From contig CANIQT010000013.1 in NCBI GenBank assembly GCA_947469885.1, forward strand, positions 13,604 through 77,603: a stretch of DNA of 64,000 bases. Reading direction: 5' to 3'. Origin of the DNA: Bacteroidota bacterium (GTDB taxonomy: Bacteria; Bacteroidota; Bacteroidia; 2-12-FULL-35-15). Positions within the stretch are counted from its first letter, which is position 1, and each line of letters starts with the position of its first letter. The position numbers and the translations under genes are program-made. The notes beneath the pieces are model-generated. The model made no database searches. It saw only the letters and a program-made list of their open reading frames with translations, and was not told the DNA's origin. This document shows, one piece after another, positions 36,709 through 54,300 of this stretch.

Positions 36709-36835
36709 TACCCAAATAAAAAAAGCAATGTAGGCATTGCCAAGCCCCCCGCCCTGTTGACCATAGCCTCTGACTAAATTCGATTTAACAAGACTTCCAG
36801 TCTTTTTAGCCTTTGTTGGTGTTTTTCACCAACAA

Positions 36836-37053
36836 ACGTGTGAAGAAAAAAATCGGGATATTTAATTTCGTACGTTTGCAGGTGAAAAACACCTGCAAAG
36901 GCATCGTTTTCGTTAATAATTAAGAACACCAACAACGGCTAAAAACGTGTGAAGAAAAAAATCGGGATATTTAATTTCGTACGTTTGCAGGTGAAAAACA
37001 CCTGCAAAGGCATCGTTTTCGTTAATATTTAAGAACACCAACAATGGCTAAAA
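36836..37053. repeat. two tandem copies of a 109-bp unit (98 percent identical), each containing a 10-bp-stem hairpin TTTGCAGGTG-aaaaa-CACCTGCAAA; flanked upstream by an inverted partial copy (ttttagcctttgttggtgtt, 36816-36835)
   Basis: Direct comparison of 36836-36944 with 36945-37053 shows 2 mismatches. The inverted repeat between 36816-36835 and the unit ends aacaccaacaa(c/t)ggctaaaa is visible in sequence. Confidence 0.85.
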
Positions 37054-37405
37054 GGCTTTCAGTATTTTTATTTATATGGTTATCTACACCTTTCTTCAAA
37101 TTCATAAAACAAAGATAAGTATAATTGCTACAGAGCAAAAGTTAAAGGCACAAAAATAAATTAGGGCTTTAATAATTTATACTTCTGTTTGGCATACCTT
37201 CTGATGTAGGCTCAACTATATTTTCAAAATCCTTGTATCTTTTTTAACTTTTTGCGTTATTACTATAAAAACAAAAAATATTTACGGAAAAATGTAACCT
37301 TTTATTTTATCTTTCGTAAAACTAGATATAACCACAAAACAATAAGCGCATGAAACACCCCTACCAACAGTAAACATCAAAAAATCAGTGCGCTTAAAAT
37401 TTTTT

Positions 37406-37446
37406 AACCATTAACCATTATCACTTAACCATTATCCATTAATCAC
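37406..37446 (+). promoter_or_regulatory. cluster of reiterated AACCATTA(TC) motifs upstream of the sigma-factor gene (candidate operator/promoter element)
   Basis: The sequence aaccattaaccattatcacttaaccattatccattaatcac carries three or four copies of CCATTA within 40 bp, ending 16 bp before the TTG-initiated ORF. Confidence 0.25.
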
Positions 37447-37528
37447 GGCTATCGGTTCTTTCTTGTTTGCTGTCCATTCCGTCCACACGGGATTCGTAAA
37501 TTCGTATTTATTAGTTATCCGAACCAGA

Positions 37529-38119
37529 ATGACAAAAGAACAAAAAAGAGAGGCAGAGCAACTTAGAGATGCGCCCCTCATTCAGCAACACAGAGATGGC
37601 GATGCAAAAGCATTTGCCCAACTTGAAAAACTTTACAAAACTCCCCTTTATTGGTATAGCTATAAAAAGCTGGGCAATCGCCCGGATGCTGAAGATGCCG
37701 TGCAGGAAGTATTTATAAGAGCAGTGGAAGCTATCAACAATGGAAACTACAGGGAAGAAATGCATTTTGGCGGGTGGTTGCACACAACAGCCCGCAATTA
37801 TATAGAGCATATTCAGAAAAAGAAAAAGCCAACTATAAAAAATGTGGAAGAATTACCAGAGGTGATGATGGAAGAAACAGAAAGTAAAGAAGAAATTAAA
37901 GAAAAAAGAAAACGGGTACGCAGCCTGTTTAAAGGGTTATCGCTCAGTGAAGCTAAATTAATGTTGCTTCGTTACTGGCATAAACTAAAATGGAAAGAGA
38001 TTGCAAAACGACTTAAAATAACTGAAAAGTATGCATCAGGGCTACATTCAAAGATTATTAAGAAGTTTCAAAAAAAGGCGGGTGAAAATATTTTTTTGAA
38101 AAATGGTGGGATTTTTTGA
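37529..38119 (+). CDS. sigma-70 family (ECF-type) RNA polymerase sigma factor
   Basis: Region-2-like DAVQEVFIRAVEAINNG...GWLHTTARNYI and a region-4 HTH KWKEIAKRLKITEKYASGLHSKIIKKFQKK. The track ORF begins at a TTG (37463). The ATG at 37529 (MTKEQK) is the likelier start. Confidence 0.65.
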   Translation: MTKEQKREAEQLRDAPLIQQHRDGDAKAFAQLEKLYKTPLYWYSYKKLGNRPDAEDAVQEVFIRAVEAINNGNYREEMHFGGWLHTTARNYIEHIQKKKKPTIKNVEELPEVMMEETESKEEIKEKRKRVRSLFKGLSLSEAKLMLLRYWHKLKWKEIAKRLKITEKYASGLHSKIIKKFQKKAGENIFLKNGGIF

Positions 38120-38194
38120 GTTTTGTGTATTGTATATATAAAGGGTGTTATCGTTCTTTAAATAGTAAAATTGATTTCAAGTGAAATCTGTCGC

Positions 38195-38278
38195 GTTTCC
38201 GAAGGAATGCGACACGTTTCCGAAGGAATGCGACACGTTTTCGAAGGAATGAAACAAGTTTCCTTGGAAACAGAACAA
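38195..38278 (+). repeat. four tandem 21-bp iteron-like direct repeats (GTTTCCGAAGGAATGCGACAC x2 perfect, x2 degenerate)
   Basis: 38195-38215 and 38216-38236 are identical. 38237-38257 has 3 mismatches. 38258-38278 is degenerate and contains the palindrome gtttcc-tt-ggaaac. Confidence 0.85.
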
Positions 38279-38334
38279 ATTTTAGTAGAAACAAAATAGT
38301 AAATAAAATTATAATCAATTAAAACAAGAAAAAG

Positions 38335-38442
38335 ATGAACAGCGTATTATTTCAAAGTTTCGGGATTTTTAGTCTTTTATCCTTGCTGCAGTTATACAGC
38401 GTAAAGAAGCAAAAAAAAAGGAGGTGTAAAATGTCATGGTAA
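38335..38442 (+). CDS. possible 35-aa upstream ORF (MNSVLFQSFGIFSLLSLLQLYSVKKQKKRRCKMSW) overlapping the start of the downstream gene (ATGGTAA)
   Basis: It is in frame from the ATG at 38335 to the TAA at 38440-38442. A strong Shine-Dalgarno-like AAAGGAGGTG lies at 38417-38426, which is unusual for Bacteroidota. Confidence 0.25.
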   Translation: MNSVLFQSFGIFSLLSLLQLYSVKKQKKRRCKMSW

Positions 38443-39038
38443 TCGTAAAAAATGGTTTAAAGGGAAAAAATCCTTCACAACGGGCAACATACTGTTTGAG
38501 AGTGAAAACAAAAACCACGGGAAATGCGTTTTTTCCTGATGCGGGTCCGTTTTTGGCACCGCTGGGAGATGCAGCAGCAGCAGTGAACACTGCATTGCAA
38601 AACCCGTTGGGGACAGCCGCCACAGTGAGAGAAAAAAATGGCGTGCTTAGGGTAAAGATGAACAAGTTTGTTGCTCACGTGCAGGGTGTGATAGATGAGG
38701 TGTCGGACGACCTGGCTTTGGAAATGCTTTCTACAATTGATTTGGAAGCAAAGATAGAGACACCAGTGCATATTCCTGATTTGTCGGCTAAGCAAGGTAG
38801 AGAAGCAAATTCAATAGCGGTGCGAAGAATTGCTGAAAGAAAACGGGTGACATACAGATTTCAAATCTGTACCGACCCGTCTTTGGAAGAGAACTGGAAA
38901 GATGCTAAAACATCGAGCAGGGCTAAAGTCGTGATTCGGGAATTAATTTCAGGTACCAAGTATTATTTGCGTGTTGCAATTATACGGGGCGATGTTCAGG
39001 AAGATTGGTCAGATTACATTTCTATCATTGTTGATTAA
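38436..39038 (+). CDS. hypothetical protein with C-terminal Fn3-like fold (200 aa), GC-richer than surroundings
   Basis: Intact ORF. The C-terminal SGTKYYLRVAIIRGDVQEDWSDYISIIV is beta-sandwich-like. The antisense track ORF 38475..38795 is rejected. Confidence 0.5.
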   Translation: MVIVKNGLKGKNPSQRATYCLRVKTKTTGNAFFPDAGPFLAPLGDAAAAVNTALQNPLGTAATVREKNGVLRVKMNKFVAHVQGVIDEVSDDLALEMLSTIDLEAKIETPVHIPDLSAKQGREANSIAVRRIAERKRVTYRFQICTDPSLEENWKDAKTSSRAKVVIRELISGTKYYLRVAIIRGDVQEDWSDYISIIVD

Positions 39039-39062
39039 GAAATGTGTGTGGTCTAGATTGAA

Positions 39063-39146
39063 AAAACTCACTGAGTGATGTAAATGGATAAAAGTTGGTT
39101 ACACAGTAACCTTCTCCGCAAGCATCAAAGCAGTGAGTTTTTTATT
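39063..39146. terminator. long bidirectional-terminator-like structure: 11-bp outer stem aaaactcactg/cagtgagtttt enclosing an inner hairpin ggttac-acag-gtaacc, followed by a T-run
   Basis: The inverted repeats are read directly. The structure lies between convergent genes (38436..39038 plus strand, 39170..39595 minus strand). Confidence 0.45.
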
Positions 39147-39169
39147 TTAATACTTTCGAAATAAAAAAA

Positions 39170-39595
39170 TTAATTATAAATATGCAACGTGGTTCCGTCA
39201 AAGGTGGTGTTGTAGGTTTTAAGCGGCACAGAGGCAGGTCCGTTGGTTACGGTGCCATCATAAAGCGAAAATTTGGAATGACAACACGTGTCGGTAGCTA
39301 ATATATGAGTAGCATCCACCACCACTGTGGCGCAGGGTTGAGAAGGCTGGTAGGTACAGTTGCGCTCGTAAGCTATAATTTCGGAAGTAGTTTTGCGGTA
39401 CAATAATATTCCTCTCACTCCTCCTGTTATATAAGTATATCCTCCAATGGCATTCAAATCAATAAAACTAGGGCTGCTGGTGTATATATAAATATCTACA
39501 CTGGCTAAGGGCACATTGTTGTCTTGTTGTTTTTTGCAATTGAATGCAAACACAATAACCGAAACAAGAAGTAGTAGTTTAAAAACCGATTTCAT
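39170..39595 (-). CDS. small lipoprotein, hypothetical (Cys-rich)
   Basis: Signal peptide MKSVFKLLLLVSVIVFAFNC with a lipobox Cys. The 141-aa product has six further Cys (CTYQPSQPC, DTCCHSKF). Confidence 0.5.
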   Translation of the reverse strand: MKSVFKLLLLVSVIVFAFNCKKQQDNNVPLASVDIYIYTSSPSFIDLNAIGGYTYITGGVRGILLYRKTTSEIIAYERNCTYQPSQPCATVVVDATHILATDTCCHSKFSLYDGTVTNGPASVPLKTYNTTFDGTTLHIYN

Positions 39596-39784
39596 TTATT
39601 GGAAAATTATAAGCAACAAAATTAAGCAAATTTATTTAACCTGATAAATAAACGGTGTGGGCATTATATTATTACTTTTGTTGCTCATTAATAGATTGAT
39701 TCTACCATATTTCATGTGAAATAGAAAAAAATTAAACACATAGGTACATAACTCAACTTGCTAGTGGTGAAACTGTTTAAAAGT

Positions 39785-39921
39785 CAATAGCCACGACCTT
39801 TAGGTCGTGGTAACATTTGATTATAAAAATTGGCTTTAGCCAAAAAATTGTTGTTTTTGTTGGGCTGAAGCCCAATTACATCTTTAATTATTTTCCCCCG
39901 ACCTAAAGGTCGGGGCTATTG
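39785..39921. mobile_element. 137-bp MITE-like element: 26-bp imperfect terminal inverted repeats (24/26), each arm itself a perfect 8-bp-stem hairpin, enclosing two further hairpins
   Basis: The left arm is caatagccacgacctttaggtcgtgg (39785-39810). The right arm is ccccgacctaaaggtcggggctattg (39896-39921). The internal hairpins are ttggct-tt-agccaa (39830-39843) and ttgggct-ga-agcccaa (39860-39875). Confidence 0.4.
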
Positions 39922-39982
39922 TTAGTAGTCCAATACAAGTGCTTTTTCAACTATCAACTTGAGTTACTAGAAGAAAGAAACC

Positions 39983-40315
39983 TTGCAGAACTTATATATG
40001 TATAGAAAAATATTCAGAAAATTAATTTTACTCCTTCTTTGTTTGTTACCATTCACCATGGTGGATGCACAAGAAAAGAAACAGGAAAGCAAAGGAGCTA
40101 TATCAGCAAAAGTGCAACGGAGAGCAGCAAGGCAAAAATGGAAAGACCAGCGCAAAACAGAAAGAGCTCAGAAAAAGGCTGTAGCAGCACATCACAAGCG
40201 ACTTCAAACAAAAAAAACATTGAAAAGCATGAAGCAGCAGAAAAAAAAGAGCGACCGACTGAGAGATAATAAGCGAGAACCCTTTTTTGTCAGATGGTTT
40301 AAATTTAAGCATTGA
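39983..40315 (+). CDS. small secreted highly basic Lys/Arg/Gln-rich protein
   Basis: The likely start is the internal MYRKIFRKLILLLLCLLPFTMVDAQ signal peptide. The mature part is KKQESKGAISAKVQRRAARQKWKDQRKTERAQKK... Confidence 0.4.
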   Translation: MQNLYMYRKIFRKLILLLLCLLPFTMVDAQEKKQESKGAISAKVQRRAARQKWKDQRKTERAQKKAVAAHHKRLQTKKTLKSMKQQKKKSDRLRDNKREPFFVRWFKFKH

Positions 40316-40699
40316 CGGGCATTACAGTCAATATTTTAGGTATTTAAAAAACTTTTTTAAAAAATAAATGAAAAAAAGTTTGGTGAATCAAAATTAATGT
40401 CGTAATATTGCAACATAATTTAATTAGACAGCATCCCCAAACGTTTAAATTAAGTACTCAGACAGTTTCTGTGTCTGCGTTTAATAATTTCCAAAATCAC
40501 GTATTGTTAATTAATTCTTAATAATTATTTAAAAAATTAATTATTATTAATTGAACTGAATTTTAGCACATTAAAATTCGAAAATAGTTTTATAAAAAGA
40601 ATTAAAAAAAAATATTTGTTAATGAAAATTAAAAAATCATATATTTACGCGCTTTTAAATTTTGCACGAGTTTAAATAATAAAAATAATACAATATAAT

Positions 40700-43600
40700 A
40701 TGCTACGAAAATTACTATCTACCTTATCAATCGTTGTTGCAACTTCCGGCTGGATGATGGCACAAAACGAATCAGCAATTAAAGTTAAGTTGACCGACAA
40801 AAACAGTCATGAAACCATTCCGTTTGCAAACGTGATTGTGGAAATGGGCGGTATTCAGGCGGGTATCGGAACCACCAATATAGATGGTGAGGCAATGATA
40901 AAACCATTGAACCCTGGTAAGTATGATGTGAAAGCTACTTATGTAGGCTATCAAACAGTAGCCATTTCTAATATAACAGTTTCTGTTGGAAAAACAGTTT
41001 ACTTAAATATGGAAATGACCGCAGGTCAGGAATTAAAAGTGGTAGAAATTACCGAATGGAAAGAACCATTGATTGACCCGGATACAAAATCGGGTGGAAC
41101 AGTGACCCGCGAAGAATATGAAAATATGGCTTCGAAAAACATTAACTCTGTGGCTGCAACCACTGCAGGAGTTTATCAGAAAGATGAAGGTGGTTCTTTA
41201 AATATGCGTGGTGCCCGTGATAATGGTACTGCTTATTATGTAGATGGTCAAAAAGTAATTGGAAGTGCAGGTGTGCCGCAAGGTGGTGTGGAGCAGATTA
41301 CTACTATTGTGGGTGGTACTCCGGCTGAATACGGAGATGAAACAGGAGGTATTGTGGCAATTACTACCAGAGGACCTGCAAGTAAATACACTGGAAGTGT
41401 GGAATTAATTACATCAGGTGTTGGCGAAAAGAAAGGATTGGATGCTTACGGATATAACTTTATTGGATTTTCGGTAAATGGTCCTATATTAACCAAAAAA
41501 GATTCTGCCACTAGCAGCAAAAAATCAGTTTTAGGTTTCTCTATTTCCGGTTCCGCGATAACTGAAAAAGAACCTAATCCATCTGCAGGAGGTTTTTATA
41601 AAGTAAACAGTGATAAACTTTCTGAAATAGAACAAACTCCGCTTCGGTCGAACGGACAAGGTGGTTTGATACCCAATGCTGAGTTTGTGACCAAAGACGA
41701 CATGACCAGAGTGAAAGCGAAAACCAATGTTGGTTCCAACACTTTATTATTAAACGGAAAAGTAATTTACCAACCTACCACCAACATGGGAATTACGTTA
41801 GGTGGTTCGGTTGAATACAATAAACGTCACGATTTTGTTTACGAATACGCCTTGTTTAATCCAAGCAACAACCCTCAAACCACAGCAAGCACTTGGAGAG
41901 CTTACGCAAAATTGACTCAAAAATTTAATTCCGCTACATCAAAAGAAGAAGAAAAATCAGGATCTATTATCAAGAATGCTTATTTTACCATGCAGGCAAG
42001 TTATGCTAAAACCCACAGCAAAACATGGGACGATGACCACAAAGACAATATTTTTGATTACGGTTACATTGGTAAATTTGTACAGGAAAAAACGGTTAAC
42101 TACGACTACAAACCCGAACAGGCTATTTATTTAAGACACCCTGATGGAACTATTTATTTAGATACCGTAACCGGAGCTATTATGAATGGATGGAGAGATA
42201 GTATTCTTTATTTTACTCCTTCAAATGTAAATCCGAATGGAGTAGCATATACAAATGAATACTATGCCAATCAATATGCTCAGGGATTGTATCCTGAAAA
42301 TGGAGTTGATGTTCAAGGAGGTTTAGGGTTGATGAATGGAGACAGACCTTCCAATATCTACTCATTATGGTACAACACTGGTCGTCAGTACAACGGCTAT
42401 AGCTGGAGCGATGAAACACAATTTAGAGTATTTGCCAACTTTTCGGCAGATATTAAAAAACATGCCATCTCTTTAGGTTTTGAGTATGAACAGAGATCAC
42501 AAAGAGCCTATTCATTAGCTCCAATTGGTTTATGGACCTTGATGCGTCAGTTAGCCAACTACCATTTAAAGAATTTAGATTCCGTTGCCACAGCTTATGA
42601 TACTCAATTTGGAACCTTTTATTACTACGACAGAAAAAATGACGGAACTCAAAACCAGTTCGACCGTAGTTTCAGACAAAGTTTAGGAATGGATGTAAAC
42701 GGAACGGATTGGATTGATATTGATTCGTACGACCCGTCTAAATTTTCGATTGACATGTTTAGTGCTGATGATTTGTTAAACAATGGTAGTTCGTATGTTA
42801 GTTATTACGGATACGACCATACCGGACAAAAAATAAAAGGAAAACCAAGTTTGGATGATTTCTTTACCGCTAAAGACGATAAAGGAAATTACACCCGTCA
42901 GATAGGTGCTTATCAACCTATTTATATTGCTGGTTACATTCAAGACAAATTTGATTTCAGAGATTTGAAATTTAATGTTGGTTTGCGTGTCGACCGTTTT
43001 GATGCCAACCAAAAAGTATTAAAAGATAAATACTTATTATATGAAGCACGAACAGCAGGCGAAGTTAGTTCAATAGGTGGCAGTAATATTAACCACCCAT
43101 CAAACATTGGCGATGATTATGTAGTGTATGTGGATAACAAAGATAATCCAAGCCGAATAGTTGGTTATCGTGATGGAGATACCTGGTACAATGCGCAAGG
43201 AACTACTATTACCGACCCTTCGTCATTAACAGGAGCGAATACTGTGGATGGTGCTATTAACCCTTACCTTGTTGACCCATCTTCGGCTAAAAAGAAAATA
43301 ATTAGTACAAAAGTATTTCAAGATTACAAGCCTCAACTTAACTTTATGCCGCGTATAGCTTTCTCTTTCCCTATTTCGGATGTGGCAAGTTTCTTTGCTC
43401 ATTACGATGTGTTGACACAACGCCCTCCGGGAGGAAACAGATTAGATCCTATTGCTTACCTTAATATGGAAAACCTAAGCGGAGGATTTATTAATAACCC
43501 AAATTTGAAACCTGAAAAAACAACAGATTACGAATTAGGATTTCAAGAGGTATTGAATGAAAAGAAAAATTCAGTGTTGAAAATTACTGCTTTTTATCGC

Positions 43601-44443
43601 GAATTAAGAAACATGGTACAAGCAGTTCAGGTTTTCCAAGCGTATCCTACTACTTATAATACCTTTGATAATATTGACTTTGGTACGGTAAAAGGAATGT
43701 CGTTGACCTACGAACTAAGAAGAATGGCAACAGGAGTTGCTCTTACTGCTGGTTACACACTTCAGTTTGCAGATGGTACAGGGTCTTCTACCTCTGACGG
43801 AGCAAATGTGGTGGCTGCGGGAGAGCCTAATTTAAGAAACCCACACGCTTTGGATTTTGACCAACGTCATACTATTACCATAAATGTGGATTACCGTTTT
43901 GGAGGAAGCAAAGATTACAAAGGACCAACCTGGACTCGCAAAAAAGGAGACAGCGAAAAAATTATTAAGATATTTGAAAATGTTGGAGCCAATTTAACTG
44001 TTAGAGCAGGTTCGGGTACTCCATATAGTAAACAGGCAAACATTACTCAAGATGGAGCATTTGGTATTGCTGACCGTAGAATATTAAAAGGTAAAATTAA
44101 TGGTTCGAACTTACCTTGGAATTTTAAAATTGACTTAAAAATTGACAAAGACATAGAAGTGACTTGGGGTGGTAAAAAAGAAGGACAAGAGAAAAAGCAC
44201 GGAAATTTGAATGTTTATTTACAAGTATTAAATTTGTTGAACACAAAAAACATCAATGGAATTTATAAAGCAACTGGTAACCCGGATGATGATGGTTATT
44301 TGGCTTCTCCTTCCGGACAGGCATCGTTGGCAGGCAGAAATGATGCTACCGCATTCACCGATTTATATGATATCAAAATTAACAATCCTGGAAATTACAG
44401 TCGCCCGAGGGTGATTCGTTTAGGTATTGTTCTTGAATTTTAA
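40700..44443 (+). CDS. TonB-dependent receptor-like outer-membrane protein (CarboxypepD_reg-like domain + plug + large beta-barrel)
   Basis: Signal peptide, then a CarbopepD_reg-like segment IKVKLTDKNSHETIPFANVIVEMGG...KYDVKATYVGYQTVAISNITV, and a plug-like NMRGARDNGTAYYVDGQKV. It is 1247 aa with a C-terminal ...RLGIVLEF ending in Phe, as in TonB-dependent barrels. Confidence 0.65.
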   Translation: MLRKLLSTLSIVVATSGWMMAQNESAIKVKLTDKNSHETIPFANVIVEMGGIQAGIGTTNIDGEAMIKPLNPGKYDVKATYVGYQTVAISNITVSVGKTVYLNMEMTAGQELKVVEITEWKEPLIDPDTKSGGTVTREEYENMASKNINSVAATTAGVYQKDEGGSLNMRGARDNGTAYYVDGQKVIGSAGVPQGGVEQITTIVGGTPAEYGDETGGIVAITTRGPASKYTGSVELITSGVGEKKGLDAYGYNFIGFSVNGPILTKKDSATSSKKSVLGFSISGSAITEKEPNPSAGGFYKVNSDKLSEIEQTPLRSNGQGGLIPNAEFVTKDDMTRVKAKTNVGSNTLLLNGKVIYQPTTNMGITLGGSVEYNKRHDFVYEYALFNPSNNPQTTASTWRAYAKLTQKFNSATSKEEEKSGSIIKNAYFTMQASYAKTHSKTWDDDHKDNIFDYGYIGKFVQEKTVNYDYKPEQAIYLRHPDGTIYLDTVTGAIMNGWRDSILYFTPSNVNPNGVAYTNEYYANQYAQGLYPENGVDVQGGLGLMNGDRPSNIYSLWYNTGRQYNGYSWSDETQFRVFANFSADIKKHAISLGFEYEQRSQRAYSLAPIGLWTLMRQLANYHLKNLDSVATAYDTQFGTFYYYDRKNDGTQNQFDRSFRQSLGMDVNGTDWIDIDSYDPSKFSIDMFSADDLLNNGSSYVSYYGYDHTGQKIKGKPSLDDFFTAKDDKGNYTRQIGAYQPIYIAGYIQDKFDFRDLKFNVGLRVDRFDANQKVLKDKYLLYEARTAGEVSSIGGSNINHPSNIGDDYVVYVDNKDNPSRIVGYRDGDTWYNAQGTTITDPSSLTGANTVDGAINPYLVDPSSAKKKIISTKVFQDYKPQLNFMPRIAFSFPISDVASFFAHYDVLTQRPPGGNRLDPIAYLNMENLSGGFINNPNLKPEKTTDYELGFQEVLNEKKNSVLKITAFYRELRNMVQAVQVFQAYPTTYNTFDNIDFGTVKGMSLTYELRRMATGVALTAGYTLQFADGTGSSTSDGANVVAAGEPNLRNPHALDFDQRHTITINVDYRFGGSKDYKGPTWTRKKGDSEKIIKIFENVGANLTVRAGSGTPYSKQANITQDGAFGIADRRILKGKINGSNLPWNFKIDLKIDKDIEVTWGGKKEGQEKKHGNLNVYLQVLNLLNTKNINGIYKATGNPDDDGYLASPSGQASLAGRNDATAFTDLYDIKINNPGNYSRPRVIRLGIVLEF

Positions 44444-44515
44444 TTCATAAAAAAACGACAAATAGAATAGTAAAAAAATTAAAAATATCCCCTATAACGA
44501 ATAAATAAATAAATT

Positions 44516-47500
44516 ATGAAAAAGAAAAATTTTAACGTAATCGTTTTGTCAATTTTCTTGGCATTTGCATTCGGTGCATTTGCAAAAGAAAACATTGGAG
44601 GTGGAAGTCATCCAACAAACCCTCCGGGTAACAATTCAGCCAAGTCGGTAAATGCTCAATGCGTAAATGCTACAGCACAAATAGATTTGGACATCAACAA
44701 TGTAAGAGCCAAAATTATGAATGGAGGCGACATGTGGTGGGATATTTTTGCTTCCACGAACGCTAGGTATCAGGTACCTAAACCTGCAAGTAGTTCTACC
44801 ATCGGACCAAGCTCACAGTTCGCAAGTTCTGTGTGGGTTGGAGGTTACGATGCTGGTGGTCAGCTAAAAGTAGCTGCTCAAACGTATCGCCAGAGCGGAA
44901 ACGACTATTGGCCCGGACCATTGAAAGATGATGCAACTACCGATGCAGGCAGATGTTTGCTTTGGGATAGATTCTACAAATTGAACCGTAAAGATGTTCA
45001 GGCTTATTACGAATGGGTAATGGGTGGTTCTATTGGAGTAAATCCTATCATTTCGGGAGCATCATTGCCTGATGCTTGGGCTACTATCACAGATTGGCCT
45101 GCTGTAAGTCCTGATAACCATCCTTTAGCTCCTTTTTATGATATTGATGCCAATAATGAATACGACCCAAGTGTGGGTGATGTTCCTGATTTTGATGTTA
45201 CTGGTACAAGAGGTTGCAATGCTCAGCTATATGGCGACCAGTGTATTTTTTGGGTGTTTAATGATAAAGGAAATATACACACCGAAACAGGAGGTGAAGC
45301 CATAGGATTGGAAGTACAGGCACAGGCATTTGCTTTTCAGACCAACGATGAAATTAACAATGCTACCTTTTACAAATATAAATTAATTAACAAAGGTTCG
45401 TTTGTATTAGATAGTACGTTCTTCGGATTGTGGGATGATGCCGATTTGGGAGATTATTCTGACGATTATGTAGGTTGTGATGTTGGTCTTGGGTTGGGTA
45501 TTCTTTATAATGGAGATGCGGTGGACGGTACCGGTGGTGCTACGCACTATGGAGCTAACCCTCCTGCAGTGGGTGTTGACTTTTTTGAAGGACCAAAGGC
45601 TGATACGAATGGTTTAGATGATCTTTCTAGTTCAAGACCGGCTTCATTCATTAATTATGGAAACACTGTGGTTGATGATGAGCGTTTAGGGATGTGTCGT
45701 TTCATGTATTTTAATAATGACTTTACTCCCGTTAACGGAAACCCGGAAGCAACAGATGATTATTACCAATACTTATCAGGAACATGGAAAAATGCAACTC
45801 CAATAACTTATGGTGGAGATGGTACAACAGGAAGTGTGCCATGTGCGTATATGTTCCCTGGAAGTTCGGATGCTCCTGCCTTTTTTGGAACAAATGGAGT
45901 AATTCAGCCAGCATGGAGCGAAACAGCAGTGCCTGCTGATAGACGTTTCCTTGAAAGTGCTGGTCCTTTTAAATTATATCCTGGTGCTGTCAACTACATT
46001 ACCGTTGGTGTTCCTTGGGCAAGAGCCACTCAAGGAGGTCCTTTGGCTTCTGTAGCACTTTTGAAAGGTGCTGACTCTAAAGTTCAGCAATTGTTCAACA
46101 ACTGTTTCTCTACGTTAAATGGTCCTGATGCTCCTAACTTAACGATTCAGGAATTGGATAAAGAATTAATATTAACCTGGTCCAATCCTTCTAATTCAAA
46201 CAACGCAAACGAAAGATATACTGAAGATTACGATAAATCCTCTGGGGCAGATTCGTTGTACCGCTTTCAAGGGTACATGGTGTATCAGTTAAAAGATGCT
46301 TCGGTGAGTGCCACCGATTTATACAATGTGGACAAGGCACGTTTAATTTTCCAGTGCGATAAAAAAGACAATGATAAACCAAATGGTGCAGCTCAGATAG
46401 TGAACTATACCAATGATATTACTATTTCAGCATTGGTTCCACAAGAAATGGTGAACGGTGTTGATAAGGGTATCATACATTCTTTGTCTGTAAAATCAGA
46501 TAAATTTGCAACTGGTAGCGATGTGTTGATTAATCACCACACCTATTATTTTGCAATTATTGCTTATGGTTACACACCAACTCAAGTGCCTACTAATCTT
46601 AACCAATTGCAAGACTACAAACCATTTATTGCAGGAAGAAGATTTATGGATGCTACTTTTTATCATACTGCTATTCCTCATATCCCTTCGCCAGAAGCAA
46701 ATGGAACACAGGCACAATCATCGTATGGTACAGGTCCAAAATTAACAAGAATAGAAGGACAGGGTAATGGTGCAATGGTGTTGGATTTAACTTCAGGTAC
46801 TGTGGACGAAATAATGAATTCAGGTTCTGGATGGCGCTCTATTCATCCTCAATATGAAAACTCTCACGGTCCAGTAAACATGAAAGTGATTGACCCATTG
46901 AATGTACCAGCCAACAGAAATTTCAGATTCATTATGAACGGAAGGGTTGTTACTAATTTATCTTCCATACCTACAACTGCTACATGGGATTTGATTGATA
47001 TGGATAATCACGATACTGTTCATTCCGAAACAAGTATTGCTTTGCCAAATGAGCAAATTATCAATGGGCAATCATCTGGTTCTGCTGCGGTTTCTATTCC
47101 TCGATGGGGGCTATCTGTTAATTCAGTTTATACGTATGATCCAGGATTAGCAGGTTGTGTTGATAATGGCTATTTGGAAGCTACAATGACTTTTGCTGAC
47201 CCTGTTAAAGCATGGTTGACGGGAGTGCCCGATGCGGAAGGATTGGATTATCATAACTGGATTCGTTCAGGAACTTTTACTTCTAAAAATCCGTTAGGAT
47301 TTGACGATTATGCAGGAAAAGACGATCAACAGTTTTACGAAAAAATGATTGGCGGCACATGGTCTCCTTATCGTATGGCTTCTATGGTGGTTCCAACCAC
47401 TGCAACAAACCCAGTAATTATGACGGGTAGTCCGGCATGGAACAGTTCTTCTGCCATGGGTCAGGATTTATTATCCAACCTTGCAAGTGTGGATGTAATT

Positions 47501-48592
47501 ATTACCAGCGACCGCTCTAAATGGACTAGATGTCCGGTTATTGAGTTGGAAGAAGCTACTAACTTGGCAATAGGCAATACTCCAAAAATGAAAATGCGTA
47601 GTTCTGCTTCAGTTGATAAAAATGGTACTGCCAACTTCCCTTCGACAGACAATAGCGATTACTCTACAGGTATGAGTTGGTTCCCTGGGTATGCAATTAA
47701 TCTTGAATCAGGAGAGCGTTTGAACATGGCTTTTGGAGAAGATTCTTGGTTGGTAGCTGACCATGGTGCAGATATGATGTGGAATCCAACTACAACGGAC
47801 CTTTCGGCAACAGACAATACTCCAGTTTTTGGAGGGAAACACTATATATATGTGTTCGGGCATAATGGTAACAAATTGTTCCCATCAAACGACCCGCATT
47901 TCCCAAATCAAATAAAAAACATGCCTCGTTACGATGGTGGTGCTTTCACTCATAATATGTTGTCGGTGGCTACCATGTCAGATGCATCTAACCTTTATGC
48001 ACGTGCGGTTTATGGCGATGCTATGTGGGTAAATATTCCTTTACTTGTACCTGGGCACAGTTTATTTGAAACTGATGTAAAAGTACGTTTGAGAGTTGCT
48101 AAATCGTACCAGTTTGGTTATGCAGGTTTAATTGCCCCTTTAACTGATACCTCGTTAACTGCTACCAATCACAATTTACCGATGTACGATTTTAATACAG
48201 CAGATATTGGAACCAAAACAAGTGATGCAGATGCTGCGGCTAATGCGCTTGACTTGATTAATGTAGTTCCAAATCCGTATTATGCGTACTCCGGATACGA
48301 ACTTTCGACAGCTGAAGTGAAAGTAAAAATAACCAATCTACCAGAAAAATGTACTGTAACTATTTATACTTTAAATGGCACATTGGTGAGAGCATTTAAA
48401 GTGGATCAGCCTGGTTATGCAAGAGACAAAATGGGGGTAGCGGTTACCTCTATTGACTGGGATTTGAAAAACCAAGTTAGAATTCCAATTTCGAGCGGAC
48501 TTTATATTATACATATAGATGTTCCTGATGTTGGAGAGAAAAACATTAAATGGTTTGGTGTGATGCGTCCGATAGATTTAGAAGCTTATTAA
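44516..48592 (+). CDS. large secreted protein (1358 aa) with T9SS type-A CTD; positional candidate for PorU-like T9SS sortase
   Basis: Signal peptide MKKKNFNVIVLSIFLAFAFGAFA. The C-terminal VVPNPYYAYSGYELSTAEVKVKITNLPEKCTVTIYTLNGTLVRAF...GLYIIHIDV is a CTD. It lies immediately upstream of a PorV-like gene, the porU-porV order. The C25 catalytic dyad is not verified. Confidence 0.5.
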   Translation: MKKKNFNVIVLSIFLAFAFGAFAKENIGGGSHPTNPPGNNSAKSVNAQCVNATAQIDLDINNVRAKIMNGGDMWWDIFASTNARYQVPKPASSSTIGPSSQFASSVWVGGYDAGGQLKVAAQTYRQSGNDYWPGPLKDDATTDAGRCLLWDRFYKLNRKDVQAYYEWVMGGSIGVNPIISGASLPDAWATITDWPAVSPDNHPLAPFYDIDANNEYDPSVGDVPDFDVTGTRGCNAQLYGDQCIFWVFNDKGNIHTETGGEAIGLEVQAQAFAFQTNDEINNATFYKYKLINKGSFVLDSTFFGLWDDADLGDYSDDYVGCDVGLGLGILYNGDAVDGTGGATHYGANPPAVGVDFFEGPKADTNGLDDLSSSRPASFINYGNTVVDDERLGMCRFMYFNNDFTPVNGNPEATDDYYQYLSGTWKNATPITYGGDGTTGSVPCAYMFPGSSDAPAFFGTNGVIQPAWSETAVPADRRFLESAGPFKLYPGAVNYITVGVPWARATQGGPLASVALLKGADSKVQQLFNNCFSTLNGPDAPNLTIQELDKELILTWSNPSNSNNANERYTEDYDKSSGADSLYRFQGYMVYQLKDASVSATDLYNVDKARLIFQCDKKDNDKPNGAAQIVNYTNDITISALVPQEMVNGVDKGIIHSLSVKSDKFATGSDVLINHHTYYFAIIAYGYTPTQVPTNLNQLQDYKPFIAGRRFMDATFYHTAIPHIPSPEANGTQAQSSYGTGPKLTRIEGQGNGAMVLDLTSGTVDEIMNSGSGWRSIHPQYENSHGPVNMKVIDPLNVPANRNFRFIMNGRVVTNLSSIPTTATWDLIDMDNHDTVHSETSIALPNEQIINGQSSGSAAVSIPRWGLSVNSVYTYDPGLAGCVDNGYLEATMTFADPVKAWLTGVPDAEGLDYHNWIRSGTFTSKNPLGFDDYAGKDDQQFYEKMIGGTWSPYRMASMVVPTTATNPVIMTGSPAWNSSSAMGQDLLSNLASVDVIITSDRSKWTRCPVIELEEATNLAIGNTPKMKMRSSASVDKNGTANFPSTDNSDYSTGMSWFPGYAINLESGERLNMAFGEDSWLVADHGADMMWNPTTTDLSATDNTPVFGGKHYIYVFGHNGNKLFPSNDPHFPNQIKNMPRYDGGAFTHNMLSVATMSDASNLYARAVYGDAMWVNIPLLVPGHSLFETDVKVRLRVAKSYQFGYAGLIAPLTDTSLTATNHNLPMYDFNTADIGTKTSDADAAANALDLINVVPNPYYAYSGYELSTAEVKVKITNLPEKCTVTIYTLNGTLVRAFKVDQPGYARDKMGVAVTSIDWDLKNQVRIPISSGLYIIHIDVPDVGEKNIKWFGVMRPIDLEAY

Positions 48593-48653
48593 TCCATTAG
48601 ATTCGCACAATAAGAATAAAAAAAATAGTATTGAACAACGAAAAAAAAAAGAT

Positions 48654-49763
48654 ATGAAAAAACGTTATAAATTAGTAGCAACTTTGGTTATTGTTGTCGT
48701 GTCATCGGTTATTCCTGGCAATATGCTAAAGGCTGGAAATCCTGACCGTGTAGGACAAGCCGGAGCAACAGAATTGTTAATAAACCCATGGGCACGTAGC
48801 TCTGGGTGGGCAGGAAGTAATGTTGCCGGAGTTAGAGGATTGGAATCCATATTTTCGAATGTGGCAGGTACAGCATTCACCAAAAAAACAGAGTTGATTT
48901 TTGCACGTACTCAATGGCTAAAAGGAACTGATATTAATATTAATGGTTTTGGTTTAACCCAACATGTGGGCGAAACAGGAGCTATTGGATTGTCGGTGAT
49001 GTCGATGAGATTTGGTGATATTCCTATTACCACCACAGATGTGCCTGAAGGCGGATTGGGAACTTTCTCTCCTCAGTTTATGAACATTACTGTTTCATAT
49101 GCAAAAGGGTTTTCGGATAATATTTATGGAGGATTAGCCGTAAAAGTAATTACCGAAAAAATTGCTAACGTGGGTGCTAGAGGTGTAGCTTTGGATGCAG
49201 GTATTCAATATGTAACCGGAAAGCGCGAACAATTGAAGTTTGGAATTGCGCTTCAAAACTGGGGACCTAAAATGAAATACACTGGAGATGGTTTAGGTTT
49301 CAAAACTCAAGTTCCGGCTAGTACCACTACTGCTACCATGACAGTTGAACAACGCTCAGAGCAATTTGAATTACCTTCGTTATTAAGCATTGGTGCAGGG
49401 TATGACTTTTATGTAAAAAAAGACAGTGCTTCGATGAAAATGCATCGCATTACTGCAATGGGAACTTTTACTTCGTGCGCATTCGACAAAAACCAATATA
49501 AATTAGGTTTGGAATACGCTTGGAAAAGTATGCTTATGCTTCGTGTAGGTTATACTATCGAAAAAGGAATTACTAAGGATTTGGATTATTCTTCGGAATC
49601 TTCTAACACAAGTTTGACCACTGCATTAAAAGGACCAAGCGCAGGTTTTACTTTTGAGATTCCGTTTGGTAAAAATAAATCAACTTTTGGTATTGATTAT
49701 TCTTACAGAGCAACCAATACTTTTGGAGGCACCCATTCGATTGGTGCACGTGTGAATTTATAG
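48654..49763 (+). CDS. PorV/PorQ-family (FadL-like) outer-membrane protein, candidate T9SS shuttle PorV
   Basis: The 369-aa product has a signal peptide, then GQAGATELLINPWARSSGWAGSNVAGVRGLESIFSNVAG, which matches the PorV-type (E/F)LLIxPDARxxGMGxxGVA N-terminal pattern. It is barrel-like and ends IGARVNL. Confidence 0.45.
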   Translation: MKKRYKLVATLVIVVVSSVIPGNMLKAGNPDRVGQAGATELLINPWARSSGWAGSNVAGVRGLESIFSNVAGTAFTKKTELIFARTQWLKGTDININGFGLTQHVGETGAIGLSVMSMRFGDIPITTTDVPEGGLGTFSPQFMNITVSYAKGFSDNIYGGLAVKVITEKIANVGARGVALDAGIQYVTGKREQLKFGIALQNWGPKMKYTGDGLGFKTQVPASTTTATMTVEQRSEQFELPSLLSIGAGYDFYVKKDSASMKMHRITAMGTFTSCAFDKNQYKLGLEYAWKSMLMLRVGYTIEKGITKDLDYSSESSNTSLTTALKGPSAGFTFEIPFGKNKSTFGIDYSYRATNTFGGTHSIGARVNL

Positions 49764-49791
49764 TATTTTTTTATAATTTTTGTATTCATAA

Positions 49792-49830
49792 AAGAGAGTC
49801 CCGCTATTGCGGGATTCTCTTTCTGTTTTA
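49792..49830 (+). terminator. rho-independent terminator
   Basis: agagagtcccgc-tatt-gcgggattctct followed by ttctgtttt. Confidence 0.6.
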
Positions 49831-49857
49831 TCACTGACTAACTAAACAATAATAATT

Positions 49858-50331
49858 ATGTCAAACATTTCTTATTTTACAGAAGAGGGATTAAAAAAAA
49901 TTCAAGAAGAATTGCACCAACTAATGGCAGTGGAGCGCCCTTCTATTTCAAAACAAATTGCTGAAGCTCGCGACAAAGGCGACTTATCAGAAAATGCGGA
50001 ATACGATGCCGCCAAGGAAGCGCAAGGCTTATTGGAAATGCGAATTTCGAAACTGGAAGCAGTGGTTAAAAATGCGCGCGTTATTGACGAATCGAATATG
50101 GATGTATCGAAAGTATTGGTGCTTTCGAAAGTAAAAATTAAAAACAAAGCTACGGGAGCAATGATGGCTTACACACTTGTGGCTGAAAACGAAGCTAATT
50201 TTAAGGAAGGAAAAATTTCTGTTGACTCGCCTATCGGTAAAGGTTTGCTAGGAAAGAAAAAAGGAGATACTGCCGAAATAAAAGTGCCTTCGGGAGTGAT
50301 GCAGTTTGAAATTGTGGAAATTTCGCGTTAA
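49858..50331 (+). CDS. greA: transcription elongation factor GreA
   Basis: The 157-aa product shows a coiled-coil N-domain with GDLSENAEYDAAKEAQ and an FKBP-like C-domain. Confidence 0.9.
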   Translation: MSNISYFTEEGLKKIQEELHQLMAVERPSISKQIAEARDKGDLSENAEYDAAKEAQGLLEMRISKLEAVVKNARVIDESNMDVSKVLVLSKVKIKNKATGAMMAYTLVAENEANFKEGKISVDSPIGKGLLGKKKGDTAEIKVPSGVMQFEIVEISR

Positions 50332-50749
50332 TTATAATTCTAAATCCTTAATCAAATTGGCTAGTATTTTTTCAAGAATAATTGCAGGCGAAATACCTTG
50401 TTACAAAATTGCGGAGAACGACAAATTCTTTGCTTTTTTGGATGTGTTCCCATTGGTTCATGGTCATGTGTTGGTGGTTCCAAAAACGGAGACCGATTAT
50501 ATTTTTGATATTGCTGATGCCGATTTGGCTGAAATGATGGTGTTCGCTAAAAAGGTTGCTAAAGCCATAAAATTGGCTGTTCCGTGCAAACGCATTGGTG
50601 TTGCAGTTATCGGTTTGGAAGTACCTCATGCTCATATTCACCTGGTGCCTATGAATACCGCCAACGATATTAATTTTACCCAAGCTAAGCTAACACCTAC
50701 TGCTGAAGAGCTTAGTGTCATAGCGGTAAAAATACGTTCAGTGTTTTAA
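50306..50749 (+). CDS. HIT (histidine triad) family hydrolase
   Basis: HIT motif PHAHIHLVP. The track start overlaps greA by 26 nt. The true start may be the TTG near 50358 (LASIFSRIIAGEIP). Confidence 0.75.
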   Translation: MKLWKFRVNYNSKSLIKLASIFSRIIAGEIPCYKIAENDKFFAFLDVFPLVHGHVLVVPKTETDYIFDIADADLAEMMVFAKKVAKAIKLAVPCKRIGVAVIGLEVPHAHIHLVPMNTANDINFTQAKLTPTAEELSVIAVKIRSVF

Positions 50750-51170
50750 TTGGTTTTAAAAATCACCACTACCCTTTTACAAGCAATTCTGTTATTAACG
50801 AAAAAGGTCAAAAAAAGAGTTTGGGACATATCCCTGATTGGGGAATGCGTCCACACAAATGTTTGGGTGTATTCCCAGTCAGGGATAGGTTCCACACAAG
50901 CATTCGGTAGGATTCCTCAGCCGGTGAATATATAGGGTATAATTTATGGTGCTTGTTGTGGGATTTAATTGATTCTATACTGATTAACAATAAGTTCTTA
51001 CAAGAAAAAGGTTTTTAGCAAAATGTTTTTGCTCACTTTTGCCAAAAAAAAGGTTATTTTATTTTACTAAAATCATCTTTTATATCAAATTATATTATTA
51101 ATATTGTAGCATGATTACAATGCTCTTAAATATAATGCTCCTTGCATTAATTATTGTAATTATTAAATTG

Positions 51171-51198
51171 CACCGCACCGCACCGCACCGCACCGCAC
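51171..51198. repeat. pentanucleotide microsatellite (CACCG)5 + cac
   Basis: caccgcaccgcaccgcaccgcaccgcac is read directly. It lies about 205 bp upstream of the likely start (51403) of the 1425-aa CTD protein gene. Confidence 0.9.
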
Positions 51199-51357
51199 AC
51201 AAGCGCAGCAGCGGCAGATAATAAATTATATTTATTTTTTTCAAAGTCCATTCGCATTTTGCGTTTGGGCTTTTTTTATTCCCCTTGAGAGAAGCAAGGG
51301 GTGTGTTTAAAAAAAACAGAACGCAGATGACGCGGATTAGGCGGATGAACACTGATT

Positions 51358-54300
51358 ATGAATTTCAGATTACAAATTATAAACCCTAAAACAAAAAACG
51401 AAATGAAAAAACAATTACTTAAATTAGTGATGCTCGCCTGTATATTTATAGGAGTGGGAGCAAAAACGATGAATGCGCAAAGTGGTGATAGTTGCACCAC
51501 GGCAAAAGATTTTTTACCAGATACCAGTATGGTACCTCAGGTAGAAATAATGAGTAATGGAACAGTGTGGTACAAGTTTACTGCAATTGATTCTAATTTA
51601 ACAATAAAATTGGTTGAACTTTTTTCTTCTCCGGGTAACAAAGTGCTTAGTGTAAAAGTGAGGATAGCTAATTGCAGTAATCCAAGTATTATAGCCAGCG
51701 ATACCATTACTGATTTGTATGATTCAGCACTTGTAATTACAACCACATTGCTTGATTCGGGTAGTGTTTATTATTTGGAAATAACAAAAAACAACAGCAC
51801 TGAAGAAGTTAAAATGTTGATAGTGGTTGATAATAATCCGAAAATAAATTGGGGCTGCACAGTACCACCTCAATGTGAGTATGTTTTTAATGGAGATTTT
51901 GAAGATTATCTTTCAGTGCCAACCGGAGGGCCAAACCAATATAATCCCGGACAAATTTTCAGAACGTGTAATTGGTCAACTGCAAATATTGGAACCCCTG
52001 ATTATTTTATGACAATAGCTCCTGCAAATTCAAATTTTGGAGTACCAAATAACGTGGCAGGAGCTGGTGCTTTTTCAATTAATTCAGCAGGCACAACCCC
52101 AAGTGGGGGAGCGTATGGAGGAATAAATGCCTGGTGGGGAGGGCAGCCAGCAGGTTTGTCTGAATGTATTCAAGGAAATTTGGTGTGTCCACTCACAGCA
52201 GGAGTAAATTATATTGTTTCATTTTATGTACATCAGGCAAGTTTTTCTCATTTTACAGTCCCAATGCTGGGAGCCGCTATAACAAACGGCAGTATAGCTA
52301 CAGCAACTGTATTTGCCCCTGTTCCCCCAGCAGGCTCGGTAATAGCAGGAGGGTTGACAAGTACAAATAACTGGCAACTTATTACAGGAGTCTATTGTGC
52401 AACAGGAGGAGAAGACCATATTACTATTGGAGATTTTTGGCCCCTGCAACCACCAATTCCAAACGGCTTTGGGCAGGCACAGGCAGCTTATTATTACATA
52501 GATGGTATTTCTGTTTCGCCCATGCCATTAGCTGTTACAACTTCAACTATTTGTTCGGGCGAAACACCCGTACTGAACAATAACTATTGCGGTGCCCAAA
52601 TGGACTGGACTTCAACCTACCCATGGTCGTGTGCAGCTTGTATAGACCCTAATCCAAGTTTACCTTTTCTATCGAGTAGCGAATCGTTTACGGCTACTCT
52701 TACATTGTGCGATGGATGTGTTCAAACTTCAACAGCTGTGGTAACTGTTGCTCAGCCTCCTGTTATTATAATTACAGGAAGTATAACATCGTGTACCGGT
52801 GCGGGTACGGTTTATACTGCACTTCAATTAGGAGTTACCCAATCGCCAGTGACTTATAGCTGGACAGCAAGTAACGGAGCATCTCAATCGGGCACAAGCA
52901 ATACTTTTACTCCAGGGTTTTCATCAGCGGGAGGTACTATCTATTGTACCATTACAAACGCTGCTACAGGCTGTAAAGGCACTGCTTCGTTATATGTTGG
53001 CAGCTGCTGCGAGCCACCTACCCCCAACATTAATTTTACCAATACAGCTGTAAATGTGTTGCCGGGTAGCCTGGCAGCAAACAGTATGGGAACCTGGAAT
53101 AGTTCCACCTATGAGGTGAAAGGCAAAACATTTTCGATTAACGGAACATTTACCGTTAATATGGATTTGACCTTGATGGGATGTACCGTATTGATGGGTT
53201 ATGGTACAACCATTAATATCAGTCCGGGAAAAAAATTAATTATTACCGATTTGGTGGACCCAACTTTACCTTGGCTTATATCTCATTTGTATGCCTGTAA
53301 AGAAATGTGGAGTGGTATCAATGTTATCTACTCTAACAGTTCATTACTCATAGACCATGGAACCACTATTGAAGATGCTGAAACAGCTGTATTTGCAACC
53401 AATGGAGGGGATGTAACTATTGGAGGCTACTATAATCAAACAGGGCAATTAAAAGTAATTTTTAATAAAAACCTAAAAAATGTAGTTATAAATAATTCCG
53501 GCACACATGTATATACTACCAATACCATTACGGCAACCGATTTTGAATGTATTGTAGGGCAAATACCACAAGGCGGAAGTAATGTGAATGGAGGTAATTT
53601 TTTAATGTTTCCTCATGCTAACATACGTCCTGATGTAGGGGTGGATTTGAATATGGTAAATAATATAACCATTGGAAGTGCTGCCAGTGCCAATTTATTA
53701 AACAAATTTGAAAACATGGATTACGGCATACGGTCGGATAAAAGTAACCTGATTGTTTACAACAACTTGTTTCAGGACATTACCATGCCTCAGAATATAT
53801 TTATTGGTAGTTGTTTGCCGGGTACTGCTATATGTGCCAAAGGAAACATTTCCAGCAATTATCCTCCTTATATGATTGTGGGCAGTTCATCTGCCGGAAA
53901 TTACATCAACACGTTTAACAATTGCGGAGTGGGCATAGATGCAGGAAAAACAATGAACCAAACCATTTGGGAAAACCATTTTAATAATATTAAAAAATGG
54001 GCAATACGTGAAAATACCAACCTGACGTGCAGTATTGTTATTGCACAAAATCATATTGTTAATGCACAGATTGGTATTGACTGTTTCAACAGCTTGTTTT
54101 CGTATGTAGATATTTACAATAATGATATTACAAACAGTGGGGGTTTGGCAAATGTAATTGGCATAAATGTGAACGAGCCCACACCTTCTCCGACTGGATA
54201 TTACAGAATACATTACAACAACATTAACTATGTTCGCTCTGGAATATTGGCTAACGGACTAACAGGCTCCAACATTGATAGGAACAATATTCGAATTACT

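Follow-up and report, generated by a model that had tools for sequence, protein, structure and literature searches.

A conserved operon of Bacteroidia encodes a TonB-dependent-transporter-like barrel, a large protein with a type IX secretion sorting domain and a PorV/PorQ-family barrel

The subject of this work is a group of three genes located in a 64,000-nucleotide stretch of DNA from a Bacteroidota bacterium (contig CANIQT010000013.1 of assembly GCA_947469885.1; the whole stretch is referred to here as the window). The three genes lie on the (+) strand and encode, in this order, a 1247-amino-acid (aa) TonB-dependent-transporter-like outer-membrane protein (gene 1, 40700..44443; an open reading frame (ORF) characterised with Pfam, AlphaFold2 (AF2) and Foldseek), a 1358-aa secreted multi-domain β-rich protein (gene 2, 44516..48592, with a signal peptide at residues 1-23), and a 369-aa outer-membrane barrel of the PorV/PorQ family (gene 3, 48654..49763; NCBIfam PorV_fam model). 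A preliminary description of this DNA had reported three consecutive same-strand ORFs with short gaps, and its coordinates were exact: 72 nt separate genes 1 and 2, and 61 nt separate genes 2 and 3. It had also proposed that the array might be a type IX secretion system (T9SS) core module with the porU-porV layout, or else that the 1358-aa protein was a different partner of a PorV-like barrel, standing beside a TonB-like barrel that was left unexplained. Sec-type signal peptides were found at the N-termini of all three proteins, including the one proposed earlier for the 1358-aa protein, with the cleavage site MKKKNFNVIVLSIFLAFAFGAFA|KE. For each protein, full-length homologues at 40-86% identity number in the thousands in Bacteroidota metagenome-assembled genomes (MAGs); the three ORFs are real genes and not chance ORFs. 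An intrinsic-terminator-like hairpin (49791..49822, (+) strand; 14-bp stem with 7 G-C pairs, loop of 4, T-rich tail) starts 28 nt past the stop codon of gene 3, ahead of greA; no terminator-like site in the scanned region (39000-51400) is stronger, and this one marks the end of the three-gene unit. The other (+) hairpin matches within the unit were weak (6- and 5-pair stems) and lay inside the coding regions of genes 1 and 2, and the scan gave no (+) match in either intergenic gap.

The conservation of this arrangement was evaluated in a sample of 83 fetched loci, each encoding a relative of the 1358-aa protein (hereafter, the cargo). A homologue of gene 1 was present directly upstream of the cargo gene in 57 of the 68 loci whose sequence extends far enough to show it, and a PorQ-like gene directly downstream in 64 of 79; the full order of barrel, cargo and PorQ-like barrel was observed in 56 loci, with median gaps of 52 nt. 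In 50 of 62 loci, greA follows the module at a distance of less than 400 nt. From locus to locus, the three proteins vary together in their identity to the window copies (r = 0.89-0.96), and the correlation between the TonB-type barrel and the cargo reaches r = 0.96. In the module loci these identities range from 41 to 69% for the barrel, from 39 to 59% for the cargo and from 43 to 73% for the PorQ-like protein, and they are about 55-80% for GreA. The fetched loci belong to MAGs labelled as Crocinitomicaceae, Cryomorphaceae, Vicingaceae, Parvicellaceae, Lentimicrobiaceae and Bacteroidales, among others, and at least 585 species-level genomes hold a member of the 1358-aa family. In two loci (L081 and L082), the TonB-type barrel gene adjoins the cargo gene and no PorV/PorQ-like gene follows; in L082 an unrelated 407-aa ORF occupies that place. 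We conclude that the three genes form a single conserved transcription unit, an uncharacterised operon that is conserved in hundreds of Bacteroidia species, and that the TonB-type barrel, far from being an unexplained neighbour, is an integral and co-inherited part of it.

The architecture previously assigned to the product of gene 1 was borne out, since all three Pfam domains score above their gathering thresholds (GA): CarboxypepD_reg at residues 27-107 (43 bits, GA 32.3), Plug at residues 134-217 (31.1 bits, GA 23.9) and TonB_dep_Rec_b-barrel at residues 520-1124 (47.3 bits, GA 27). The order along the chain is signal peptide, CarboxypepD_reg domain, candidate TonB box, plug (residues ~123-230) and a large barrel that carries about 400 additional residues in its loops and ends in ...RLGIVLEF. 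The AF2 model of residues 110-1247, obtained with 59 homologues as input, has a mean predicted local distance difference test score (pLDDT) of 77 and a predicted template-modelling score (pTM) of 0.75. When this model was compared with the PDB using Foldseek, the matches included the classical 22-strand transporters PirA, PhuR, PfeA, FpvA, FhuA and BtuB, with E values from 5e-24 to 1e-18 and template-modelling scores of 0.55-0.72, normalised on the target. The plug motifs RGxR, VDG and GGTPAEYGD..GG.I.ITT are unvarying over the 59 homologues. The candidate TonB box (LKVVEITE, xVEVxEY in the family; residues ~113-120) lies in a flexible stretch modelled with low confidence, and it fits no strict TonB-box consensus. 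At the sequence level the protein is remote from every curated family: it has no NCBIfam match at E<=0.01, the SusC/RagA models included, and neither a sequence search nor a profile search of the PDB gave a transporter match. According to the model, gene 1 thus encodes a plugged barrel with the 22-strand fold of TonB-dependent transporters and a Bacteroidota-style N-terminal Ig-like domain.

The cargo encoded by gene 2 showed no Pfam domain, as was also the case for its 120 best homologues, and both sequence and profile searches of the PDB were empty. Residues 24-1223 were modelled by AF2 as mostly β (pLDDT 68, pTM 0.54); in this model of moderate quality, a β-supersandwich of the carbohydrate-binding (mutarotase-like) type and FN3-like modules can be recognised, and Foldseek returned no significant PDB match, and none that was caspase-like. 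The family is very large, with 7,205 clusters at 50% identity (E<=1e-3), 2,204 of them at E<=1e-30. Among six long, distant members examined with Pfam, the only recognisable domains were inserted BNR or Big_9/cadherin-like modules. The passenger part contains neither β-propellers nor a C25 domain.

The C-terminal sorting domain (CTD) of the cargo occupies residues ~1245-1358 (48248..48589, (+) strand; NCBIfam PorZ and TIGR04183 matches). To characterise it, the last 135 residues of the window protein and of four relatives were scanned alone. The best match in all five was the NCBIfam T9SS_PorZ model at positions 659-748 of 757, with 28-37 bits and E values from 5e-7 to 1e-9. The TIGR04183 model gave 24-32 bits in the four relatives and 18.4 bits in the window copy, below the cut-off of 23; Por_Secre_tail (PF18962) did not match the window protein, and its scores in the relatives were 14-19 bits against a GA of 27. 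The type-A label given to this domain in the preliminary description is therefore upheld for the family and is borderline for the window copy. Column conservation in the CTD (0.71-0.81) is as high as elsewhere in the protein. After the CTD comes a tail specific to the family, KWFGVMRPIDLEAY (residues 1345-1358, nt 48548-48589, (+) strand), whose last residue is aromatic; both CTD and tail were retained by every paralogue examined. Judged by these profile matches, the CTD is a type-A variant closest to that of PorZ. The PorZ and PorU CTDs are uncleaved and remain bound to PorQ and PorV, respectively (PMC10202324, PMC12365241). Overall, gene 2 encodes a Sec-exported, mostly-β protein whose T9SS sorting domain is type A at the level of the family and resembles that of PorZ most closely.

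The 369-aa product of gene 3 passes the model of the PorV/PorQ family (NF033709) with 147.3 bits against a cut-off of 90, its residues 37-368 covering positions 3-325 of 326. A profile built from 44 orthologues matched the solved PorV of Flavobacterium johnsoniae (6h3i_F) with an E value of 8.8e-9, and the identity to residues 12-216 of that protein is ~25%; homologues of the 369-aa barrel are 60-86% identical. The equivalog models gave scores far under their cut-offs: 67.4 bits against 250 for PorV (NF033710), with only the N-terminal half aligned, 66.4 against 220 for PorQ (NF033711), with an end-to-end alignment (residues 47-369 on positions 35-335 of 335), and 37.7 against 325 for PorV2 (NF052325). 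Consequently, orthology with PorV, PorQ or PorV2 was rejected, and the resemblance to PorV/PorQ noted earlier stands at the level of the family. A FadL-family barrel also belongs to the Bacteroidota β-barrel assembly machinery (PMC12611786, PMC12578637), and a complex of the BamG/BamH type was considered; it was ruled out by the full-length match to the PorV/PorQ model and by the T9SS CTD on the partner protein. From these profile scores, the 369-aa protein is best regarded as a true PorV/PorQ-family member with a subfamily of its own, and not as a generic FadL; it presumably anchors the CTD of the protein encoded upstream.

These results bear directly on the proposal that genes 2 and 3 are a divergent porU-porV pair, that is, a T9SS sortase and its shuttle. 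The layout, with a large CTD protein directly 5' of a PorV-family barrel, agrees with this idea, and so does a weak match of the cargo to the end of the PorU model (positions 996-1078 of 1095); this match covers the CTD part only, and it amounts to 17 bits in the window copy, against a cut-off of 420, and to 12-21 bits across the window protein and the four relatives. However, no Peptidase_C25 or PorU catalytic match was obtained with Pfam or NCBIfam, and the residues suggested as a catalytic dyad are not conserved together: H1116 of FGHNG is present in 96% of the family, but C394 of LGMCRF is kept in just 25%. The mostly-β fold lacking any caspase-like match, and a barrel that scores 67 bits where the PorV equivalog requires 250, are also difficult to reconcile with a sortase and its shuttle. 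We rejected the identification of the cargo as PorU or as a C25 protein, and a divergent porU-porV pair is hardly credible; the proposed T9SS core module is not supported either. The fallback offered by the preliminary description, a different CTD-bearing partner of a PorV-like barrel, agrees with what was found, namely a PorV/PorQ-family barrel next to a protein with a PorZ/PorU-like CTD.

Cargo genes were also found outside complete modules. Lone paralogues with neither barrel adjacent were detected in approximately 13 loci, in unrelated neighbourhoods (L010, L016, L018, L028, L033, L052, L059, L064, L068, L076-L078 and L083), and in L001 (15338-19312) a second paralogue follows the PorQ-like gene in tandem. 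These extra copies, lone or tandem, have the same CTD and a tail that reads LKWFGVMRPxDLDxF/Y throughout. Some genomes have one full module as well as a lone cargo copy (L009 with L016, and L027 with L033). Truncated fragments of the 1358-aa family were observed just 3' of the lone paralogue in L028, L033 and L059. This distribution suggests an alternative in which the PorQ-like barrel would be a dedicated carrier for a separate cargo class, the whole 1358-aa family of adhesins or surface-coat proteins, much as PorP/SprF-like barrels serve type-B CTD proteins; the CTD plus tail would then define a subclass, and the TonB-type barrel, though co-transcribed, would be functionally separate. It is consistent with the retention of CTD and tail by paralogues that have no barrel of their own, with the coexistence of lone copies and one full module in the same genomes, with the huge size of the family (7,205 clusters) and with the BNR or Big_9/cadherin-like inserts of some members, which are typical of surface proteins. 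Nevertheless, we regard it as unlikely: the TonB-type barrel is linked to the cargo as tightly as the PorQ-like barrel (57/68 loci, r = 0.96), which is hard to understand without a shared function, and adhesins or coat proteins are usually far less conserved across orders than the 39-59% identity of this cargo.

The position of the barrel gene immediately 5' of a gene for a secreted protein also brings to mind the TonB-type protein Oar of Myxococcus, which is required for the secretion of PopC. By analogy, the product of gene 1 would be the exit channel for the 1358-aa protein, and the PorQ-like barrel would catch it outside; the succession of CarboxypepD_reg, plug and barrel matches the architecture of Oar. 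Yet the cargo has a T9SS-type CTD and this organism has many T9SS cargos, making the normal translocon the simpler route; moreover, a 22-strand barrel of this kind cannot let a folded 1358-aa protein through, and the lone paralogues have no adjacent barrel. Export of the Oar type is accordingly considered very improbable.

From the combined evidence, it is well supported that the module contains a cargo-plus-anchor pair built like PorZ-PorQ, in one conserved operon with a canonical-looking TonB-dependent transporter. To account for this combination, we tentatively favour, at somewhat less than an even chance, a reading in which the 1358-aa protein would be exported by the T9SS, retained through its CTD on the PorQ-like barrel and act as the partner of a TonB-energised uptake barrel. 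In such a scheme, the T9SS translocon would carry the cargo over the outer membrane, and its CTD, uncleaved, would dock on the dedicated PorQ-like barrel, by analogy with PorZ on PorQ and PorU on PorV, so that the protein would be exposed at the cell surface. The tail that follows the CTD, conserved and ending in an aromatic residue, may contribute a strand to the 369-aa barrel. Once displayed, the cargo, with its predicted β-supersandwich and FN3-like modules, could work with the TonB-energised barrel encoded just upstream as an extracellular capture or lid partner of a system that would import a substrate. Strong conservation and housekeeping neighbours suggest that the substrate might be an invariant, generally needed compound rather than a niche glycan.

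Several observations weigh against this uptake model. The retention of the CTD, the docking, the contact with the TonB-type barrel and the import are all deduced from homology and gene linkage. The many extra cargo paralogues lacking their own barrels indicate that the cargo family is not strictly tied to the transporter. For the cargo, AF2 gave a model of no more than moderate quality (pLDDT 68), its supersandwich fold is generic, and Foldseek gave no significant match for it. The three proteins are nearly as conserved as GreA, a level that a machine component would explain no less well than a nutrient binder. Finally, in contrast to typical uptake loci, neither a regulator nor a periplasmic binding protein, an inner-membrane transporter or a degradative enzyme is conserved beside the module in the fetched loci; its constant neighbours are greA and a HIT-family gene.

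The last two points, together with the single full module per genome, fit well with a rival in which the trio would be a T9SS accessory or attachment module made of functional counterparts or paralogues of PorF, PorZ and PorQ, with a late role in type IX secretion, such as handing glycolipid or cargo to the cell surface. The PorZ CTD is the best match of the cargo CTD, and the 369-aa barrel aligns end to end with the PorQ model. PorF (PG0534) is a predicted TonB-dependent-receptor-like outer-membrane protein required for T9SS function, and the porF, porQ and porZ mutants of Porphyromonas gingivalis W50 share a phenotype described as beige with about 90% loss (PMC12704123); in Cytophaga hutchinsonii, the PorF homologue CHU_1606 co-immunoprecipitates with PorV (PMC8564354). 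On the other hand, with 66 bits the 369-aa barrel does not reach the 220 of the PorQ equivalog, the cargo outside its CTD is unrelated to PorZ, and the plug of gene 1 is fully canonical, as in working importers. PorF is a 92 kDa protein of about 820-830 aa (PMC5445135, PMC7323717), in contrast to the 1247 aa (some 400 more) and the extra N-terminal domain of the gene 1 product, a comparison made by size only. We consider a PorF/PorZ/PorQ-like module rather unlikely, but it is the main rival of the uptake model. A broader proposal, that the operon encodes a hitherto unrecognised, near-housekeeping outer-membrane machine of many Bacteroidia, in which a third T9SS cargo-class/carrier pairing (a PorZ-like CTD with the aromatic-ended tail, recognised by its own PorQ-like barrel) would be physically coupled to a TonB-energised plugged barrel, is possible but doubtful. 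In such a machine, the T9SS would install the extracellular partner of the transporter and a second barrel, in place of a lipid, would hold it; this could also account for the similar behaviour of PorF, PorQ and PorZ in P. gingivalis.

Regarding the immediate surroundings of the module, a 141-aa predicted lipoprotein (MKSVFKLLLLVSVIVFAFNC...; lipobox AFNC) is encoded divergently upstream of it (39170..39595, (-) strand). In approximately 35 of the fetched loci, tblastn located it upstream of the barrel gene and in the reverse orientation, with 33-69% identity, and it is possibly a looser fourth member of the neighbourhood. It has no Pfam or NCBIfam match; it contains a Cys-rich CCHSKF motif, and it resembles Rieske ferredoxins weakly and without significance (E 0.1-0.8). 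Just 5' of the barrel gene, a 110-aa ORF (39983-40315, (+) strand) with a signal-peptide-like start and an extremely Lys/Arg-rich body was also present in about a dozen fetched loci (32-57% identity), and it has no family match. In the intergenic region upstream of the module, a G+C-rich hairpin occurs twice in opposite orientations (ccacgacctttaggtcgtgg at 39792-39811 and ccccgacctaaaggtcgggg at 39896-39915) with two smaller palindromes in between, forming a cluster (39792-39915) that resembles repetitive extragenic palindromic (REP) elements. Compared with the syntenic loci L001 and L084, the window has an additional segment (34642-39038) inserted after the AdoHcyase gene and before the module, in which lie a TPR-adenylate/guanylate cyclase (34642-36708), an extracytoplasmic function (ECF) sigma factor (37463-38119) and an ORF of 200 aa that has no match. 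The ECF sigma factor was discarded as a regulator of the module, as it is not syntenic in the other loci.

Elsewhere in the window, five proteins with bona fide type-A CTDs are encoded, one at 2042-4231 and four consecutively at 51358-58415 ((+) strand; 1425, 326, 229 and 322 aa). Those of 326 and 322 aa have a DUF3244-like region in common and resemble paralogues; the 1425-aa protein (51358-55635) showed no BLASTP similarity to the 1358-aa cargo and was rejected as a paralogue of it. On the (-) strand, a 684-aa protein with an SprB repeat, PKD and a CHU_C type-B CTD (27069-29123) is followed directly by a 490-aa PorP/SprF barrel (25554-27026; 226 bits with Pfam and 242 bits with TIGR03519). 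Given these five type-A and one type-B CTD proteins, the organism clearly uses the T9SS. Canonical PorU, PorV, PorQ or PorZ were not found within the window, and when a fragment of F. johnsoniae PorV was searched against 84 sequences, namely the 83 loci and the window, only the module's own barrel was retrieved. A further pair at 22401-25430 ((+) strand) consists of a 513-aa protein with no Pfam or NCBIfam match and, 18 nt on, a 489-aa barrel of the FadL/Toluene_X family (31 bits with Pfam), whose C-terminus gave a weak, sub-threshold PorV_fam match (29.5 bits); this might be a BamH/BamG-like or another barrel-plus-partner pair. At the end of the window, a giant open frame (58919-64000, (+) strand; at least 1693 aa) carries PKD and K319L-like PKD repeats and runs off the sequence. 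The stretch in which it lies has a G+C content of 0.44-0.48, well above the window baseline of 0.32-0.40, and the frame may correspond to a huge adhesin or to a horizontally acquired segment.

Each part of this module is of a known kind, be it the TonB-type barrel, the T9SS CTD cargo or the PorV/PorQ barrel. In the literature searched on PorV2, PorV- and PorQ-like paralogues, and TonB transporters with the T9SS, the module is not described, and the name PorV2 is absent. Nor does that literature describe the fixed three-part combination, the tail-bearing CTD subclass or the huge cargo family that lacks a Pfam domain. If the favoured reading is correct, the module would represent a new build of Bacteroidota surface complex, in which a TonB-type transporter has a T9SS-delivered, barrel-anchored partner instead of a lipoprotein. 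It would also offer a genomic handle on the unexplained link between the TonB-receptor-like PorF and the PorQ-PorZ half of the attachment complex. In addition, it draws attention to a very large protein family (~7,200 clusters, at least 585 species) with no Pfam domain or solved relative, and the near-GreA conservation of the trio suggests an important function in mostly uncultured environmental Bacteroidia.

When compared with known systems, the closest likeness is to the PorZ-PorQ and PorU-PorV pairs, in which a T9SS-exported protein has a CTD retained on a PorV/PorQ barrel. Here, the best match of the CTD is PorZ, its retention would follow by homology, and the 369-aa barrel scores above the cut-off of the PorV/PorQ family and aligns with PorQ over its whole length. 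The module differs in that the cargo and barrel genes are neighbours and are joined to a gene for a TonB-type barrel, and in that its CTD has an extra conserved 14-residue tail; furthermore, PorZ has two β-propellers before its retained CTD, whereas the 1358-aa passenger is unrelated and has none. PorF (PG0534, CHU_1606, Fjoh_0118) is described as a TonB-receptor-like outer-membrane barrel with a functional tie to the T9SS, and gene 1 likewise encodes a barrel of the TonB type; the product of gene 1 differs in its 1247 aa, its N-terminal CarboxypepD_reg domain and its ~400 extra loop residues. The SusC/SusD (RagA/RagB) systems resemble the module as modelled in having an N-terminal Ig-like domain, a TonB box (a candidate in our case), a plug and a 22-strand barrel, and in placing the barrel gene first with the gene for the surface partner directly downstream. 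In contrast to them, the module lacks a SusC/RagA signature, a SusD-like domain in gene 2, and a regulator or enzymes alongside; the partner in SusC/SusD is a lipoprotein, but here it is a 1358-aa T9SS cargo with its own presumed anchoring barrel. The IhtA/IhtB system of P. gingivalis was not used as a precedent for a transporter with a T9SS-anchored partner; a review calls IhtB a lipoprotein. Finally, genes for type-B CTD cargos precede the gene for the PorP/SprF-like barrel that anchors that cargo (PMC9143113), as exemplified in the window by the pair at 27069-29123 and 25554-27026; the order of cargo gene and anchor-barrel gene is the same in the module, which differs in combining a type-A, PorZ-like CTD with a PorV/PorQ barrel instead of a CHU_C type-B domain with PorP/SprF.

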